Source of the DNA: Candidatus Heimdallarchaeota archaeon
Lineage (GTDB): Archaea; Asgardarchaeota; Heimdallarchaeia; JABLTI01
DNA: 64,000 nt
Reading direction: 5' to 3'
NCBI GenBank assembly: GCA_018238155.1
Contig: JABCTZ010000003.1
Span: 96,001 to 160,000 of the forward strand
Made by a program: the position numbers and the translations under genes
Shown: piece after piece, positions 5,013 through 35,587 of the stretch
Position numbering within the stretch: the stretch's first letter is position 1
How the letters are laid out: each line of letters starts with the position of its first letter
The notes under the pieces: model-generated
What the model was told of the DNA's origin: nothing
Database searches by the model: none
What the model saw: the letters and a program-made list of their open reading frames with translations, nothing else

Positions 5013-5152
5013 GGGCCGTTAGCTCAGCTTGGTAGAGCAATAGGCTCATAAGGCTTGCACTTGCGAGTTCCTGCCTGATGATACCTATTGGTCACTGGTT
5101 CAAGGGATACAAATTGCGATTTGTATCTGAACAAATCCTGTACGGCCCACCA
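5013..5152 (+). tRNA. tRNA with CAU anticodon (probably Ile2, else elongator Met), two introns: 5051-5082 (37/38) and 5104-5134 (58/59)
   Basis: Acceptor GGGCCGT/ACGGCCC, D-stem GCTC/GAGC, anticodon stem ATAGG/CCTAT with loop CT-CAT-AA, T-loop TTCAA|AT, encoded CCA. The second intron has BHB helix GTTC/GAAC with AA|G and AA|A bulges and hairpin GATACAAAT-tgcg-ATTTGTATC. The GGGCC start resembles archaeal tRNA-Ile. Confidence 0.9.
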
Positions 5153-5233
5153 TTTTCTTCTTGTTTTGATACAAAATCTGTGTTCTATTTTCATTACTGG
5201 TCGTGTGAGATTGATGGTTGTGTTCCCTTTTTC

Positions 5234-5262
5234 CGCGAATTCAAATCGCGCTGGGCCCACCA
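5234..5262 (+). repeat. tRNA 3'-end fragment, type B (different tRNA)
   Basis: TTCAAAT-CGCGC-TGGGCCC-A-CCA. Confidence 0.8.
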
Positions 5263-5284
5263 AATTCTTACTTTTTATTTTATA

Positions 5285-6361
5285 TCAAGATGTTTCTTTA
5301 ATCCCATCTTTACCGTTTTTATACTTCTTTTCTTCAATGGTAATTTGTTTTTCGAGTTTATTCATTTGTTCAATTGCTAAATTTATATTATCAACTAAAA
5401 CTAATCCATTTGTAAGACACTCTTCAGCACACCATTTCCCTGCAATTATTAAGTAAGGTTTCATAAATTCGGTGATTTTCTTAATCTTTTGGATGTAATT
5501 GTTGATTTGTTTCTTAATTGCATTAAAGATTAATTCTCTACTTTTGTCCCAAATTAATAATGATACAAAAACAATACCTAGGATTATTTTCCATTCATTT
5601 GGTAATGCAGAAACAAAATCATAACCTTTCTTTAGAATATTGACAATTTTATCAATAAACGATATAATAAAAACTAATAATCCCCCAATTATTAATGCTC
5701 CCAATTCAAATGTTAAAATTCCTAATAAGGGGATACTTGTAGCAAGTATTACAAAAGAAGCTGATCCTTGTTGGTAAATACTAACTATTTCACAAGATTC
5801 CTTTGTACCTTTCCATGATTTTACACCATCAAGATCGAGCATATCCTTATCTGTTGTTATTATCGCATGTTTTCCTAATTTCAAGAAAAGAGCTACATAC
5901 TCTACATCTTCTTTATCTCTTTCAGCTATCATAGCTTCTGCTTTTTGATAAGCTACGTCATCATCTAAATTTTGATATGTGATCTTGGTTAAAAATTTGG
6001 AAGCTATAACTTCAATTTCTTTGGTATCTTTATTACAATATTCAGCGATACTTTCAATGTGTTTGTTAATCTCATTTTTTATTTTATCAGGTGCTACACC
6101 TAAAACAAATGGTGATTCAAGTAATTCCAATAGAAACGAATGATTATATTTTACATAGGCTCTAATATGCTTATTTAAAATGCTTGCATCGATAATGATT
6201 TGCAATGATATGTTTTGACCCATTTCCAAAATATTGTCTTCAAAAAAACCTTTGATTTGTTCCATAATACTTAGATCTATGTGTTTTACTATTTCCTTAA
6301 TTATCTCTTTTCTATTGTCAAATTTCTTTCTAATTCGTTCCCAATCCTTTTCGTTAAACAT
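5285..6361 (-). CDS. PIN-domain protein with C-terminal transmembrane helices
   Basis: IIIDASIL, DKEDVEYVAL and IITTDKD acidic PIN motifs; 2-3 hydrophobic segments after the domain. Confidence 0.7.
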   Translation of the reverse strand: MFNEKDWERIRKKFDNRKEIIKEIVKHIDLSIMEQIKGFFEDNILEMGQNISLQIIIDASILNKHIRAYVKYNHSFLLELLESPFVLGVAPDKIKNEINKHIESIAEYCNKDTKEIEVIASKFLTKITYQNLDDDVAYQKAEAMIAERDKEDVEYVALFLKLGKHAIITTDKDMLDLDGVKSWKGTKESCEIVSIYQQGSASFVILATSIPLLGILTFELGALIIGGLLVFIISFIDKIVNILKKGYDFVSALPNEWKIILGIVFVSLLIWDKSRELIFNAIKKQINNYIQKIKKITEFMKPYLIIAGKWCAEECLTNGLVLVDNINLAIEQMNKLEKQITIEEKKYKNGKDGIKETS

Positions 6362-6444
6362 TTTATCTCAAATCCTTTCCCAGTTTTTCTACACATTTCT
6401 AGCATAAAAAACCTTTCGAGATATTACATTCCATAAAATAAGTG

Positions 6445-6478
6445 TTGGTCACTGGTTCAAATCCTGTACAGCCCACCA
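6445..6478 (+). repeat. tRNA(CAU) 3'-end fragment, type A, intron-less
   Basis: TTGGTCACTGGTTCAAATCCTGTACAGCCCACCA, 33/34 identical to the spliced tRNA. Confidence 0.95.
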
Positions 6479-6497
6479 CTTCATATTTATGAAGAAA

Positions 6498-6746
6498 CTA
6501 AATATCTGAAATTATTTCTTTAATTTCTGCATGAGAGGGAATTCCCTCAAACTTTATTTCACCATCTACAACAATAGATGGTACTGCTTTAATGTTATAC
6601 TTCTTTGCTAATACAACAGCATCAGCTGATTGATTTAAATTATATTCAATGACCTGACATTTTTCACATATTGCTTCTTTTAGTTGTCTTAATGCTGTTT
6701 GGCAAAGAGAACAACCCGCTGTGAATATCTCAAATTTATGACCCAT
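6498..6746 (-). CDS. Glutaredoxin/thioredoxin-like protein
   Basis: CSLC active site, AVPSIVVDG motif. Confidence 0.85.
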   Translation of the reverse strand: MGHKFEIFTAGCSLCQTALRQLKEAICEKCQVIEYNLNQSADAVVLAKKYNIKAVPSIVVDGEIKFEGIPSHAEIKEIISDI

Positions 6747-6847
6747 TAGTGAAAGTCTCCATTATGCTTGGTTACTAAAAGTAACTAAGTTTACATAAGT
6801 ATTTAAATTGGTGGTTTCCAAGTAGAAACAAAGTATTCAGATGGAAA

Positions 6848-7225
6848 GTGATTCCGATTAAAGAGGAAAAAATAATTTGTCCATTATGCAATATTATGAA
6901 TATTGTTAGTAAAAAATGGTCTTTACTTATAGTTAATACAATAGGCAATACTGCAACAATTAGGTTTAGTGAAATAAAGAGAAATCTGCGAACGATAAAT
7001 TCCAAAGTTTTATCTGATAGATTAAAAGAGCTCGTACAAGCAGAGATCATAAACAGGAAATCAAAAGACTCAGTACCACCACATGTTGAATACTCTTTAA
7101 CTGATAAAGGAAAATCATTACGCAAAGCAATAATGCCACTTCTTGATTGGTTTTATTCCTACAATGAGAAAGGAAGAATAACCCCATGCGATATAGCATA
7201 TCAGATTGAAAGGGTTGAGAAATGA
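6848..7225 (+). CDS. HxlR-family winged-helix regulator
   Basis: CP...KKWSLLIV...RFSEIKR...LSDRLKEL...PPHVEYSLTDKG. Confidence 0.9.
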   Translation: MIPIKEEKIICPLCNIMNIVSKKWSLLIVNTIGNTATIRFSEIKRNLRTINSKVLSDRLKELVQAEIINRKSKDSVPPHVEYSLTDKGKSLRKAIMPLLDWFYSYNEKGRITPCDIAYQIERVEK

Positions 7226-7375
7226 AATCACTATCCCTACCCGACGAAAAAAGTATATCATATTTTGGCATGTTGATTTTTCCTAGTAATCATTGAGCAT
7301 TAAATTTCAAAACATTAATAGTATCTTTGTAGATAAAGTCGACTTCATAACTGATCGATTTAAGTAACAATTCTG

Positions 7376-7409
7376 TTGATCACTGCTTCAAATTCTGTAC
7401 GGTCCACCA
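7376..7409 (+). repeat. tRNA(CAU) 3'-end fragment, type A, intron-less
   Basis: TTGATCACTGCTTCAAATTCTGTACGGTCCACCA, 30/34 identical to the spliced tRNA. Confidence 0.9.
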
Positions 7410-7421
7410 GTTTTTTCCTTT

Positions 7422-8048
7422 CTAGGTTTTTTGCACAATGTAATCTATTGTGATACTTTGGCATTGTTTCTCATTGTGAACGTAACCAAAGCTTGTTATT
7501 CCTTTGTGAAGTAGTTTTAATCCAGTAAAGAGTTCATCCGCTTCATCAATGTTATAAAAGGAATGAAAAGTATCTTCAAATCCATATTTACCTGCTTTTG
7601 AGATATCTAGCATTTCATTATCGCCAATATCTTTTCCCTCTTTTATGAAAGCTGAATCAGTTGATTGAAAATTAATGTACAGTAAACCACCTTTCTTTAG
7701 CACTCGAAGCATTTCTTTGACCGCTTTTTTAGTACCTGCTTTCGTAAGATGCTCAATCGTGTTATAAGAATATGCGAAACTAAATGACTCATCTTCATAT
7801 GACAATTCTCGTATATCTGCTTTAATTATTTTATAATCAAGGTTATTTTCTTCTGCATATTTTTGTGCTCTCTCTCTCTGAGTATCAGAAATTTCCACTC
7901 CGTGTGCTTCATACCCTCGTTCACCAAAGACTGTTATTTTAGGCTCGGATCCACCAGCACCACAATCCAAAATCCTTTTTTCAAAATCACTTTTTTCTGT
8001 GAATTCCAAAAATCTCTCTATTTCTTGTGGGATAGTAAAAGTAACCAT
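7422..8048 (-). CDS. Class I SAM-dependent methyltransferase
   Basis: ILDCGAGG motif I, GVEIS, ADIREL, RVLKKGG. Confidence 0.9.
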   Translation of the reverse strand: MVTFTIPQEIERFLEFTEKSDFEKRILDCGAGGSEPKITVFGERGYEAHGVEISDTQRERAQKYAEENNLDYKIIKADIRELSYEDESFSFAYSYNTIEHLTKAGTKKAVKEMLRVLKKGGLLYINFQSTDSAFIKEGKDIGDNEMLDISKAGKYGFEDTFHSFYNIDEADELFTGLKLLHKGITSFGYVHNEKQCQSITIDYIVQKT

Positions 8049-8098
8049 AATCCATTATTTAGACTGGTAAATTATTAAATATTTTACAACTCTTGAAA

Positions 8099-8126
8099 AC
8101 TGGTTCAAATCCTGTACGACCCACCA
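8099..8126 (+). repeat. tRNA(CAU) 3'-end fragment, type A, intron-less
   Basis: ACTGGTTCAAATCCTGTACGACCCACCA, 27/28 identical to the spliced tRNA. Confidence 0.93.
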
Positions 8127-8283
8127 CTTCTTCTATTAATACCGACAAAGATAATCACGTTACAAAAAAAGCAACCGATTTTTTTATATAAAACCTTGAA
8201 ATAGGAAGTTTGTGAATAGTAGCAACTAATTTTTCTCTCTATAATACTGATTATTACAATTCAAACTTCAGAATGCTCTCTGA

Positions 8284-8508
8284 TTACTTAGCTAATTTGA
8301 AAAACTCTTCTTTTGATAATTTGGAATCGTTGATGATTTTTAACAGTAGGCCTTTTCCTAATGTTTCTCCTTTGTGATCTGGAACTACAATTAATCTGCC
8401 GTCTGGGTGTTTTAAAATTACATGACTTCCTTTTCTTCGAGTAACCACAAAACCGATTTTTGTTAAAGTTTTAATAACTTTTGTTGCTGTTAGAGGTTTC
8501 AGTTTCAT
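8284..8508 (-). CDS. hicA: HicA-family toxin (mRNA interferase)
   Basis: GFVVTRRKGSHVILKH...VVPDH...LGKGLLLKI. Confidence 0.92.
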   Translation of the reverse strand: MKLKPLTATKVIKTLTKIGFVVTRRKGSHVILKHPDGRLIVVPDHKGETLGKGLLLKIINDSKLSKEEFFKLAK

Positions 8509-8810
8509 TCAATTGGAACCTCTATGAATTGAATGCCTACAAAATCCTTTTGTAAATTTCTTTTGAATTCAGAATCAACAGTTTCCAAATAAAGATCTAC
8601 TGCTTCTTCCATTCTTTGAATTAATTGATTTAGTGATTTTGCTTGTGTATAACAACCTGGCAGTTCTGGTGCAGAAGCAATAAAATAGCCATCTTGATCT
8701 TTTTCGATTAGAATGGTGATTTTCTTCATATCTGTTGTCATTTCTTTTTTGCTCCTTGATACTATTACCCAAATATAATATATAAATAAGATTATTTCTT
8801 TAGCTAACAT
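8505..8810 (-). CDS. hicB: HicB-family antitoxin (likely start ATG 8729)
   Basis: IEKDQDGYFIASAPELPGCYTQAKS...EAVDLYLE; 4-bp overlap with hicA. Confidence 0.9.
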   Translation of the reverse strand: MLAKEIILFIYYIWVIVSRSKKEMTTDMKKITILIEKDQDGYFIASAPELPGCYTQAKSLNQLIQRMEEAVDLYLETVDSEFKRNLQKDFVGIQFIEVPIE

Positions 8811-8993
8811 TTTTTATCTATTTATGCCTATCTTTACCTAAATGACTTTCAAATTTTTTATGTAGGGTATTTAGAAGAAGTTGGACACTCCTTTCAATCT
8901 TGTTAGCAAATAAAACTGACACTTTCTTTTTCAGATAATGCTGCAAGAGAACTCCCGTCACTTGAGCGCGTGAAGTTTAGTGTTGTTTTCCCT

Positions 8994-9023
8994 TTGGTCA
9001 CTGGTTCAAATCCTGTACACCCA
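8994..9023 (+). repeat. tRNA(CAU) 3'-end fragment, type A, intron-less, acceptor strand shortened
   Basis: TTGGTCACTGGTTCAAATCCTGTAC (25/25 identical) then ACCCA. Confidence 0.9.
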
Positions 9024-9254
9024 TGAAATTCTCTCTTGAAAGAGCTATTTTCGAATAATAATTGGTAAAGCTATATGAGCTATAGTTTTATAAAGGATGG
9101 ATAAAAGTCTTCTATTGTATACATTTAATGAAACATTGAGTTAGGAATGAATAAATTTTTGGTAATTAGTAACTTTCAAGTTTGAATTCTCAAATCTTAT
9201 CTTTTAATTTCTTTGCAATATTTAATGTATAACAAAATAACAAGTGAATCAAAA

Positions 9255-9407
9255 ATGATTAACGGCTATAACCGCGAACCAAGAGAAATGCACAAAGTTA
9301 CTTGTGCCGAATGTGGAATTGAGACTGAAGTACCCTTCAAACCTGATGGCGAACGACCTGTTTACTGTCGCGACTGCTACCAAAAGCGCAAACCAAGTAG
9401 ATATTAG
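9255..9407 (+). CDS. CxxC-x17-CxxC zinc-binding domain protein
   Basis: REMHKVTCAECG..TEVPFKPDGERPVYCRDCY. Confidence 0.9.
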   Translation: MINGYNREPREMHKVTCAECGIETEVPFKPDGERPVYCRDCYQKRKPSRY

Positions 9408-9505
9408 AATTAACTAATCTACGAATCATTCCTAGTTGAATTATAATTCATTTTATATTTCAAACTAGTTTTTTTTTATTATTAGCTTTAATTTAATACA
9501 AGGTT

Positions 9506-9533
9506 GACTGCTCAAATCGTACTGGGCAAGCCA
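9506..9533 (+). repeat. Degenerate tRNA 3'-end fragment, type B
   Basis: cTCAAAT-CGtaC-TGGGCaa-g-CCA versus TTCAAAT-CGCGC-TGGGCCC-A-CCA. Confidence 0.6.
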
Positions 9534-9556
9534 GTTTACTTTTGATTCTCCAAAAG

Positions 9557-21791: not shown

Positions 21792-23045
21792 TTAACCTGA
21801 TTTTTTAGAAATTCTTTCTTTTCGTTTTTCTGCTTTAGCAAATCTTTTCTCTTCTTTTTCTTTGCTTCTCTCTTCCAAATATTTTTTATGTTCCTTTGGA
21901 TTGACTATGTATTTTTCACCACTAATTAATCCTATTAACCAGCTTAGGAATGCTAAGAGCAATATCCCATTTGCAAACCCTATTATGAGGAGTACTATTG
22001 GGTAAACAAGCGCTTCATTAACTATTTCATTTCCATCTATTGCATTGGCGATAACTAAAGTTATCACAGTAGCAATGATCCAAAATGTTACAATTGTACT
22101 ATAGAGAACAACTCTGTAGAAGAATCGCTTTTGATAATGTATGAGTTTGTCATTCCCAAAGGTAAACTTGGAAATTCCTTTTTGAAATGTATGATAGACA
22201 TTTTTCATCCATCCCCAAACAATCTTTGGAAAAGTAAAAATTGAAATAAAGAATGCTTTTACTTTCTTCATAAATTTCCCTGCGAAATCTACTTCGCTAA
22301 ATATGACCGCTAAAATGACTATTCCAACACCCAATACAATTAGTATTACTAATGGAACCCAAAAGCTGTCTCCAGAGAAGAAAAAGGTAAAAGCAGCTGC
22401 AATCCCTTTCCCGATGTTCACTAAGATAAATTCCCAGATTACTGTAACAAAAATTGCGTTAAGAATAGCGACAAAGAGTGCCCAGGCAATACTCCATTCG
22501 AAATTAACAAAGAAATTTCTAAATGATAACCAAACTTCGTCCATGAAATCAAATGAAATGAATATTGCAATTACTGCTCCTAATGTTCCCGCAATAAAAT
22601 AAAACATTGGAAGTGATCTTAAGAATCCTACTTCATTGATATATCCTTCTGGTATTGTATCACCATCTTCTATTTCAAATAAAGTACGATCTAAATCTTC
22701 CTTATCGTTTCTAGATAGAAATTTGAATGTATCTCTGATTTTCCAATAAGCGTAAATATATGGAAACATGATGATTTTTATTATTATCCAGAAGAAAAGA
22801 CCTATGCCACGTAAAATTCTCAAAGGATGATAAAATTTCTTTTCTTTGATTTTTTCCTTTCTTTCTCTACGTTTTTGTGCTCGTCCTTGTTGTCGTTTCG
22901 TTCTTTTTTGAGCTCCAGTAAGTTCTTCTGTATCTTTGTTTTTCTCTTCTTTTTGCTCTTTTTTGGCTTTAACTTTCGTTTCTTCCTTCTCCGTCTCATC
23001 ATTTGTCATAATTATTATCTCCTGAGATTTTACAAAAAATATCAA
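21792..23045 (-). CDS. Multi-pass membrane protein with Lys/Glu-rich termini
   Basis: About 6 hydrophobic segments and charged ends. Confidence 0.65.
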   Translation of the reverse strand: MIFFVKSQEIIIMTNDETEKEETKVKAKKEQKEEKNKDTEELTGAQKRTKRQQGRAQKRRERKEKIKEKKFYHPLRILRGIGLFFWIIIKIIMFPYIYAYWKIRDTFKFLSRNDKEDLDRTLFEIEDGDTIPEGYINEVGFLRSLPMFYFIAGTLGAVIAIFISFDFMDEVWLSFRNFFVNFEWSIAWALFVAILNAIFVTVIWEFILVNIGKGIAAAFTFFFSGDSFWVPLVILIVLGVGIVILAVIFSEVDFAGKFMKKVKAFFISIFTFPKIVWGWMKNVYHTFQKGISKFTFGNDKLIHYQKRFFYRVVLYSTIVTFWIIATVITLVIANAIDGNEIVNEALVYPIVLLIIGFANGILLLAFLSWLIGLISGEKYIVNPKEHKKYLEERSKEKEEKRFAKAEKRKERISKKSG

Positions 23046-35468: not shown

Positions 35469-35587
35469 GCCGAGGTGGCCTAGCCTGGTAGGGCGATTGC
35501 CTGGAATTTTTTTCCAAGTAATGAGCAATATACCGGTAAGCAATTGTGTGAAAGCACGCGCGAGTTCGAATCTCGTCCTCGGCACCA
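35469..35587 (+). tRNA. tRNA-Ser(GGA) with canonical intron 35507-35538
   Basis: Acceptor GCCGAGG/CCTCGGC, anticodon stem ATTGC/GCAAT, long variable arm, GCGAG-TTCGAAT-CTCGT, CCA; BHB helix CTGG/CCGG. Confidence 0.9.

Follow-up and report, generated by a model that had tools for sequence, protein, structure and literature searches.

A putative, recently gained T-loop intron in a heimdallarchaeal tRNA(CAT) gene and intron-free copies of its 3′ part in a downstream cassette array

Among the closest described counterparts of the locus reported here is the transfer RNA (tRNA)-Thr(GGU) locus of Caldiarchaeum subterraneum, which carries an intron at 24/25, a repeated 5′ fragment and a recombinase gene in the insert (Sugahara et al. 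2012, PMC3293823). Our locus lies in a 64,000-nucleotide stretch of contig JABCTZ010000003.1 from a Candidatus Heimdallarchaeota archaeon (assembly GCA_018238155.1), hereafter the window, and comprises a tRNA(CAT) gene at 5013-5152 with a putative intron in its T-loop, followed by an array of small gene cassettes that are separated by copies of tRNA 3′ parts. It resembles the Caldiarchaeum locus in that the intron appears to have been gained recently, within or between close lineages. It differs in the T-loop position of the intron, in repeats that represent the 3′ part of the gene, in an array of at least seven cassettes and in that no recombinase was found nearby. Moreover, the authors of the Caldiarchaeum study infer delivery of the intron by an element (PMC3293823), whereas for the present locus gain in place is slightly favoured.

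The protection of tRNA genes against integration by introns and by gene splitting is a hypothesis of Randau and Söll 2008, as cited in PMC3293823. In the form cited there, the hypothesis agrees with our locus in that the intron lies inside the 34-nt stretch that is repeated as attachment (att) copies; it disagrees in that an intron-bearing att copy sits in two different contexts. The locus can also be compared with integrase-less tandem accretion at tRNA genes and with integron arrays, since here, too, att copies separate small, defence-like cargo units that move between species. Unlike in integrons, the att is a tRNA 3′ part rather than an attC, and no integrase or IntI was found in or beside the array. 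Fujishima et al. are said to have described, in 2010, non-canonical tRNA introns of Thermoproteales at many positions, including the T-arm, together with intron transposition and sequence likeness between sites. The introns discussed below are likewise short and of the bulge-helix-bulge kind, but they occur in an AT-rich lineage, and only three T-arm introns were found, all of ∼31 nt.

The protection idea and the intron-vector idea are both already in the literature, and the locus is a new, unusually well-dated example. That introns arise or persist because their genes are targeted, and that elements carry introns, are ideas that have long rested on very few natural examples. Here, a single place would hold a dated series, consisting of a T at tRNA position 63 (T63), then four intron-free att copies, and then the intron; in addition, an intron-bearing att copy adjoins the gene, and T-arm introns are present or absent in three tRNA genes of the genus. 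Both ideas could thus be examined with comparative and population genomics and, when the recombinase has been found, in recombination assays.

The gene and its immediate surroundings are composed as follows:

5013-5152, + strand: tRNA(CAT) gene of the elongator type (Met or Ile2), with encoded CCA and two introns, identified by Rfam and by the perfect cloverleaf obtained after removal of both inserts

5052-5083, + strand: canonical anticodon-loop intron of 32 nt at 37/38 (equivalently 38/39), called by ARAGORN once the T-loop insert was removed

5104-5134, + strand: putative T-loop intron of 31 nt at 58/59 with a relaxed bulge-helix-bulge fold, the removal of which restores the T-loop TTCAAAT

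5153-5198, + strand: T-rich trailer or spacer of 46 nt between the gene and the first att copy, read directly

Rfam matched its tRNA model to 5013-5149 with 42.3 bits, and ARAGORN at default settings called no tRNA in the whole window. Once 5104-5134 had been removed, ARAGORN called a 77-nt tRNA-Met(CAT) cloverleaf with an encoded CCA end; when the canonical intron alone was removed and the T-loop insert was kept, no tRNA was called. With long introns allowed, the program wrongly joined the 5′ half of the gene to the first of the downstream copies across 1378 nt. The assembly comprises 4.08 Mb in 46 contigs (32.8% G+C, 90.7% complete), and a second gene or intron-less copy of this tRNA, which the sequence-only reading had named as a possible better source of the downstream copies, was not found elsewhere in it. 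Introns of ∼31 nt occur in many tRNA genes of the assembly. Homologues of the canonical intron at 5052-5083 are present in the related genomes G007 and G010 and on contig Ga0114923_10026366, and are absent from G005 and G008.

As CAA occurs at both edges of the T-loop insert, the sequence alone allows any placement between 55/56 and 58/59. In the predicted fold of the pre-tRNA, GUUC (positions 53-56) and a GAAC close to the insert's 3′ end form a 4-bp helix, which is followed by a 3-nt 5′ bulge (AAG) and a 10-bp hairpin; the z value for the whole precursor was -3.4. If each side is cut after the second base of the bulge, the insert would lie exactly at 58/59, and the same rule sets the 31-nt inserts of the tRNA-Cys(GCA) and tRNA-Lys(TTT) genes of this genome, described below, exactly at 53/54. 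The 3′ bulge is part of a larger unpaired stretch, and the bulge-helix-bulge motif is therefore relaxed. Two EndA-family (tRNA_int_endo) genes are present in the genome, a number that fits the alpha-beta enzyme type of broad specificity; an (alpha-beta)2 EndA with the L1 loop has been reported for the TACK and Asgard groups (PMC5829648). As judged from this predicted fold and from the cloverleaf restored by its removal, 5104-5134 would be a real archaeal splicing-endonuclease intron in the T-loop.

Conceivably, the insert is not spliced at all and the gene is a dead relic. Such a reading would account for the T51-T63 mismatch in the T-stem, and the paralogous type B tRNA(CAT) gene is missing from the assembly as well, so that the tRNA set is incomplete anyway. 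However, all other stems of the gene are intact, the promoter-like, TATA-like box TTTAAATA upstream of it is conserved in the closest relative, and the gene is the only one of the elongator CAT type in the 4.08-Mb assembly. In length and helix-bulge rule, moreover, the insert agrees with the 53/54 introns conserved in Cys and Lys. We consider a dead relic improbable.

Downstream of the gene, four copies of its 3′ part, termed type A, were identified:

6445-6478, + strand: type A copy 1, tRNA positions 43-76, with T63, without the intron and with one substitution (G68A)

7376-7409, + strand: type A copy 2, with four substitutions

8093-8126, + strand: type A copy 3, left arm replaced by a cassette end, with G69A

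8994-9018, + strand: type A copy 4, acceptor part/3′ end decayed

All of these represent tRNA positions 43-76, lack the insert, and retain T63 (4/4); type A copies were found nowhere else in the genome. The 19-mer ACTGGTTCAAATCCTGTAC, which spans the junction left by the insert, recurs exactly at 6451, 8099 and 9000, and with 2 mismatches at 7382, which amounts to four downstream matches as compared to 0.01 predicted by shuffles. A gene with a 31-nt T-loop intron and four copies precisely without it, all keeping the T-T mismatch, was what the sequence-only reading had described, and this was confirmed by direct reading, by ARAGORN and by the 19-mer. The copies are direct repeats of a tRNA 3′ part, situated downstream of the intact gene and bounding foreign DNA, as is characteristic of att repeats.

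Between the gene and the first cassette lies an att copy of another type:

5199-5262, + strand: att copy B1 (type B), which corresponds to the 3′ part of a second tRNA(CAT) paralogue and is split at 53/54 by a 32-nt intron (5208-5239)

In B1, a left arm of normal form is followed by 32 inserted nucleotides, homologous to the 53/54 intron of tRNA-Lys(TTT) on contig C11, and then by a T-loop with acceptor part. A decayed counterpart in G008 is likewise located directly before a cassette encoding a PIN-domain protein. The linkage of B1 to the PIN unit therefore exists in two species (G000, the present assembly, and G008), with different left neighbours and also with different att copies after the PIN unit. 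As a candidate, a derivation of the B1 left arm from tRNA-His was rejected, since the sequence concerned belongs to a 53/54 intron of the tRNA-Lys(TTT) kind, of which it forms the 3′ end.

The retention of the intron by B1 shows that att copies are DNA copies of the state of their source, and this rules out an origin from spliced RNA. Reverse transcription of the mature, spliced tRNA had been among the options of the sequence-only reading, and it would explain why the type A copies lack the intron and end in CCA. Yet CCA is encoded by the tRNA genes here anyway, and the copies are partial, start at position 43 and run, 3′ of CCA, into T-rich trailers that are conserved together with the cassettes. 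Furthermore, intron-free relatives have copies of the same kind, and no RVT_1 match indicative of a reverse transcriptase was obtained in the genome (a single profile, in an assembly that is 90.7% complete). Together with the intron in B1, these observations leave reverse transcription with hardly any credibility.

The age of the 58/59 intron could be delimited by comparison with orthologues. The insert is absent from all five that were compared, namely those in the congeners G005, G007, G008 and G010 and on the metagenome contig Ga0114923_10026366, and all five have G63 or a compensated stem. Left out of this comparison were G001, whose contig stops 225 nt short of the expected site, and G009, in which the flank is absent; one further contig includes the upstream gene but does not reach the tRNA. 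The closest locus, on Ga0114923_10026366, is 81% identical along 558 nt of flank and shares the anticodon stem of the gene under study, and the intron is absent from it. T63 is confined to the gene under study and its four copies. The exact 19-mer ACTGGTTCAAATCCTGTAC was present in no other archaeal genome record, its matches among genome contigs being unrelated bacterial tRNAs only, and it had no match in viral contigs. The copies have the lineage-specific T63 in common with the gene and lack the intron, and they therefore record a T63, pre-intron allele. The simplest order of events that we infer would be T63, then the copies, and then the intron. With five intron-free orthologues and with copies that have T63 minus the intron, this upholds the timing proposed in the sequence-only reading, in which the intron was gained after the insertions.

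The same proposal held that the intron now blocks the att site, and this part of it fared less well. By comparing one cassette across several contexts, we observed that most cassette sets keep att, trailer and body linked, while the shared sequence breaks at positions 42-48, between NYTG and GTC. The 58/59 intron is located 10-16 nt 3′ of this most frequent break and interrupts G53-C61, a 9-nt block common to all att types. The occurrence of B1 in two contexts means that a T-arm intron was no bar to the placement of this unit and that att copies could be intron vectors; B1 itself is possibly a natural intron vector. In Thaumarchaeota, elements also integrate into intron-bearing tRNA genes (PMC6563490). 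The idea that T-arm introns stop recombination is weakened by both B1 and the thaumarchaeal elements.

One cassette comparison gave a different picture, in that a switch occurred inside GGCCCACCA: the methyltransferase unit has an A-type att in G010 and a B-type att in G004, with the same trailer. This switch would suit a scheme in which the intron is old, the copies stem from intron-free att of incoming elements that crossed over 3′ of the T-loop, and the T-arm of the gene was never exchanged. Such a scheme is contradicted by the 5/5 orthologues without the intron. In addition, the copies here carry the host-specific T63, and a copy in G005 carries the host-specific stem ATTGG/CCGAT, from which it follows that the host gene supplies the T-arm of a copy. 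We regard an old intron as quite improbable.

As to the origin of the intron, the 12-mer AAATTGCGATTT is common to the 58/59 intron and the canonical intron of tRNA-Val(GAC), and it has 4 copies in 8.2 Mb (both strands). Global alignment of these two introns gave a z value of 4.8 (0/1000 shuffles), alignment of the 58/59 intron with the gene's own canonical intron gave a z value of 3.9, and 15 other introns gave background scores. Other copies of the 58/59 intron were sought in 83 genomes of the class, with weak matches only, and the three of these that were inspected were outside tRNA genes; the intron hairpin had no match in viral contigs. This resemblance to resident introns, in conjunction with the lack of copies elsewhere, points to a home-grown origin. 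The intron would most likely have arisen as a duplicate of one already resident in the genome, similar to that of Val(GAC) or to the gene's own canonical intron.

Delivery from outside was the second option of the sequence-only reading. An element with an intron-bearing att would have recombined 5′ of the T-loop, thereby replacing the 3′ part of the gene and displacing an intron-free one. A delivery model of this kind was published for Caldiarchaeum (PMC3293823; reviewed in PMC8371274), and B1 is precisely an att copy with a T-arm intron that is PIN-linked in two species. Most cassette sets also keep the left att linked, with the break at 42-48 located 5′ of the intron. On the other hand, only 46 nt separate the gene from the next att copy and no delivering cassette is visible, the delivered part would need the lineage-specific T63 as well, and the intron resembles resident introns of the genome, while neither viral contigs nor the 83 genomes of the class yielded a second copy of it. 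We take delivery to be a possible, if unlikely, alternative.

On balance, the best explanation of the locus is probably that the 58/59 intron is young and home-grown, and that older DNA copies preserve the pre-intron gene. An allele with T63 and as yet no intron would have been the source, or the homogeniser, of the four type A DNA copies of the gene's 3′ part, which are situated between mobile cassettes that recombined into the locus. The type A copies would then be fossils of the pre-intron gene and not of spliced RNA, and the intron would have arrived afterwards through duplication of a resident intron.

Several observations weigh against this explanation. There is one intron-bearing gene only, and the intron-less T63 allele was not seen as a live gene. 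The T51-T63 mismatch puts the full function of the tRNA(CAT) gene in some doubt. The junctions between cassettes and att copies are at several places, namely at positions 42-48, at the T-loop and in GGCCCACCA, and no single crossover point emerged from them. The 58/59 intron could also have come by recombination, as B1 shows that a cassette-linked att may have a T-arm intron. Lastly, no reverse transcriptase was found in the genome, as noted above for RVT_1.

A repetitive palindromic element was considered as the identity of the intron hairpin and was rejected, the hairpin being unique in the genome. As a separate observation, both ends of the intron hairpin (GATACAAA...ATCTG) have a match in GATACAAAATCTG, a sequence within the spacer at 5153-5198; the probability of finding the 8-mer alone in this spacer by chance was ∼0.003.

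A scan for split T-loops revealed two more T-arm introns in the genome, both outside the window and each of 31 nt at 53/54. The genes concerned had been missed by ARAGORN and by the Rfam screen, and they were called by ARAGORN after removal of the 53/54 insert:

G000:C11:52868-53007, − strand: tRNA-Lys(TTT), with a D-loop intron and a 31-nt intron at 53/54

G000:C39:112824-112958, + strand: tRNA-Cys(GCA), with a 31-nt intron at 53/54 in addition to a canonical one

Among genomes of the genus, the Cys 53/54 intron is present in 7 genomes and absent in 3, and the Lys 53/54 intron is present in 4 and absent in 4. The predicted helix at the Cys intron covaries between species, with exon CGTG facing intron CACG and exon CGCG facing intron CGCG, which supports real splicing by the same rule. 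The 58/59 intron can be counted among a group of T-arm introns of 31 nt, gained and lost among the tRNA genes of the genus. In a count of T-arm introns against arrays, fragments of the Cys gene were found in 0/7 intron-bearing genomes and in 2/4 genomes in which no T-arm intron was seen, a sample too small to test an association; the two were G003, which has a gene without the intron, and G010, for which only the fragment was found. Speculatively, the T-arm introns (Met 58/59, Cys and Lys 53/54 and that of one att copy) may recurrently enter this part of the att stretch, spread on cassette-borne att copies and be kept as a shield of essential tRNA genes against damaging recombination, the present locus being a shield that was fitted after the array had been built. 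We hold this proposal to be doubtful; if it is true, the turnover of T-arm introns is tied to cassette arrays and the interest of the locus is higher, and otherwise its interest is moderate.

The second tRNA(CAT) paralogue, from which the type B copies derive, occurs as an intact gene with a D-loop intron in G003; an intact type B gene was not found in the present assembly (90.7% complete). In G008, a type B tRNA(CAT) has its 5′ half, canonical intron included, but unrelated sequence takes the place of the 3′ half (locus L048, G008:C192, ∼22080-22140), and this gene may be split or disrupted. The D-loop introns of the G003 type B tRNA(CAT) (L050, G003:C72, ∼2590-2700) and of the tRNA-Lys(TTT) on G000:C11 are at the same position, and both end in GGCAA.

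The cassettes that follow B1, together with the remaining att copies, are:

5285-6361, − strand: cassette gene for a PIN_2-domain protein (Pfam E 1.7e-10; protein 80% identical to the G008 copy)

6498-7225: cassette with a thioredoxin-like gene (− strand) and an HxlR regulator gene (+ strand), both from Pfam

7422-8048, − strand: cassette gene for an S-adenosylmethionine (SAM) methyltransferase, with 95% DNA identity to the G004 and G008 copies

8284-8810, − strand: cassette with a HicA/HicB toxin-antitoxin pair (Pfam)

9029-9501, + strand: cassette with a treble-clef zinc-finger gene (9255-9407), recurring in G003, G004, G005 and G008

9502-9534, + strand: type B copy, decayed

11467-11497, + strand: final att copy identified, of type B, its acceptor part decayed

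Two more genes lie beyond the zinc-finger unit, along with the att copies at 9502-9534 and 11467-11497, and the array comprises at least seven short cassettes. Whereas the methyltransferase unit has 95% DNA identity to its counterparts in G004 and G008, identity to G005 and G008 falls to 66-73% in the flank 5′ of the tRNA gene, which shows that the units are mobile between species. Mixed arrays of types A and B are also located 3′ of the orthologous tRNA gene in G008 and G010 and on Ga0114923_10026366. Contigs of G004 and G005 have arrays or single att copies of types A/B, and the tRNA gene is absent from those contigs. Exact-protein look-ups with the PIN and methyltransferase cassettes found no other contigs.

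No recombinase was detected by Pfam among the larger open reading frames scanned in 1-20 kb of the window, nor in the arrays of the relatives. The genome has only two Phage_integrase matches, both on other contigs. As for an integron, no tyrosine recombinase was found beside the array and the repeats are tRNA 3′ parts; attC sites were not searched for.

The cargo is largely defence-like, with PIN_2, HicAB, SMODS and Schlafen/AlbA_2 proteins (window 5013-11500; L045, L047, L051, L057), and it further includes a WD40-Roc-PNP protein with a weak, sub-threshold TIR_2 match. Further arrays in the genome are situated at Ala, Pro and Leu tRNA genes. Three copies of another tRNA 3′ part with small cassettes are located near a contig end (G000:C13:175536-179150), and no parent tRNA gene was found near them.

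Elsewhere in the window, Rfam matched a second tRNA at 35469-35584 with 48.9 bits, which ARAGORN called as Tyr(ata) with an odd intron; this gene probably has a non-canonical intron and was assigned the wrong type. Finally, a triosephosphate isomerase homologue at 12250-13038 (− strand) matched the Pfam TIM model over profile positions 55-244 only, a partial match that would fit a circular permutation.

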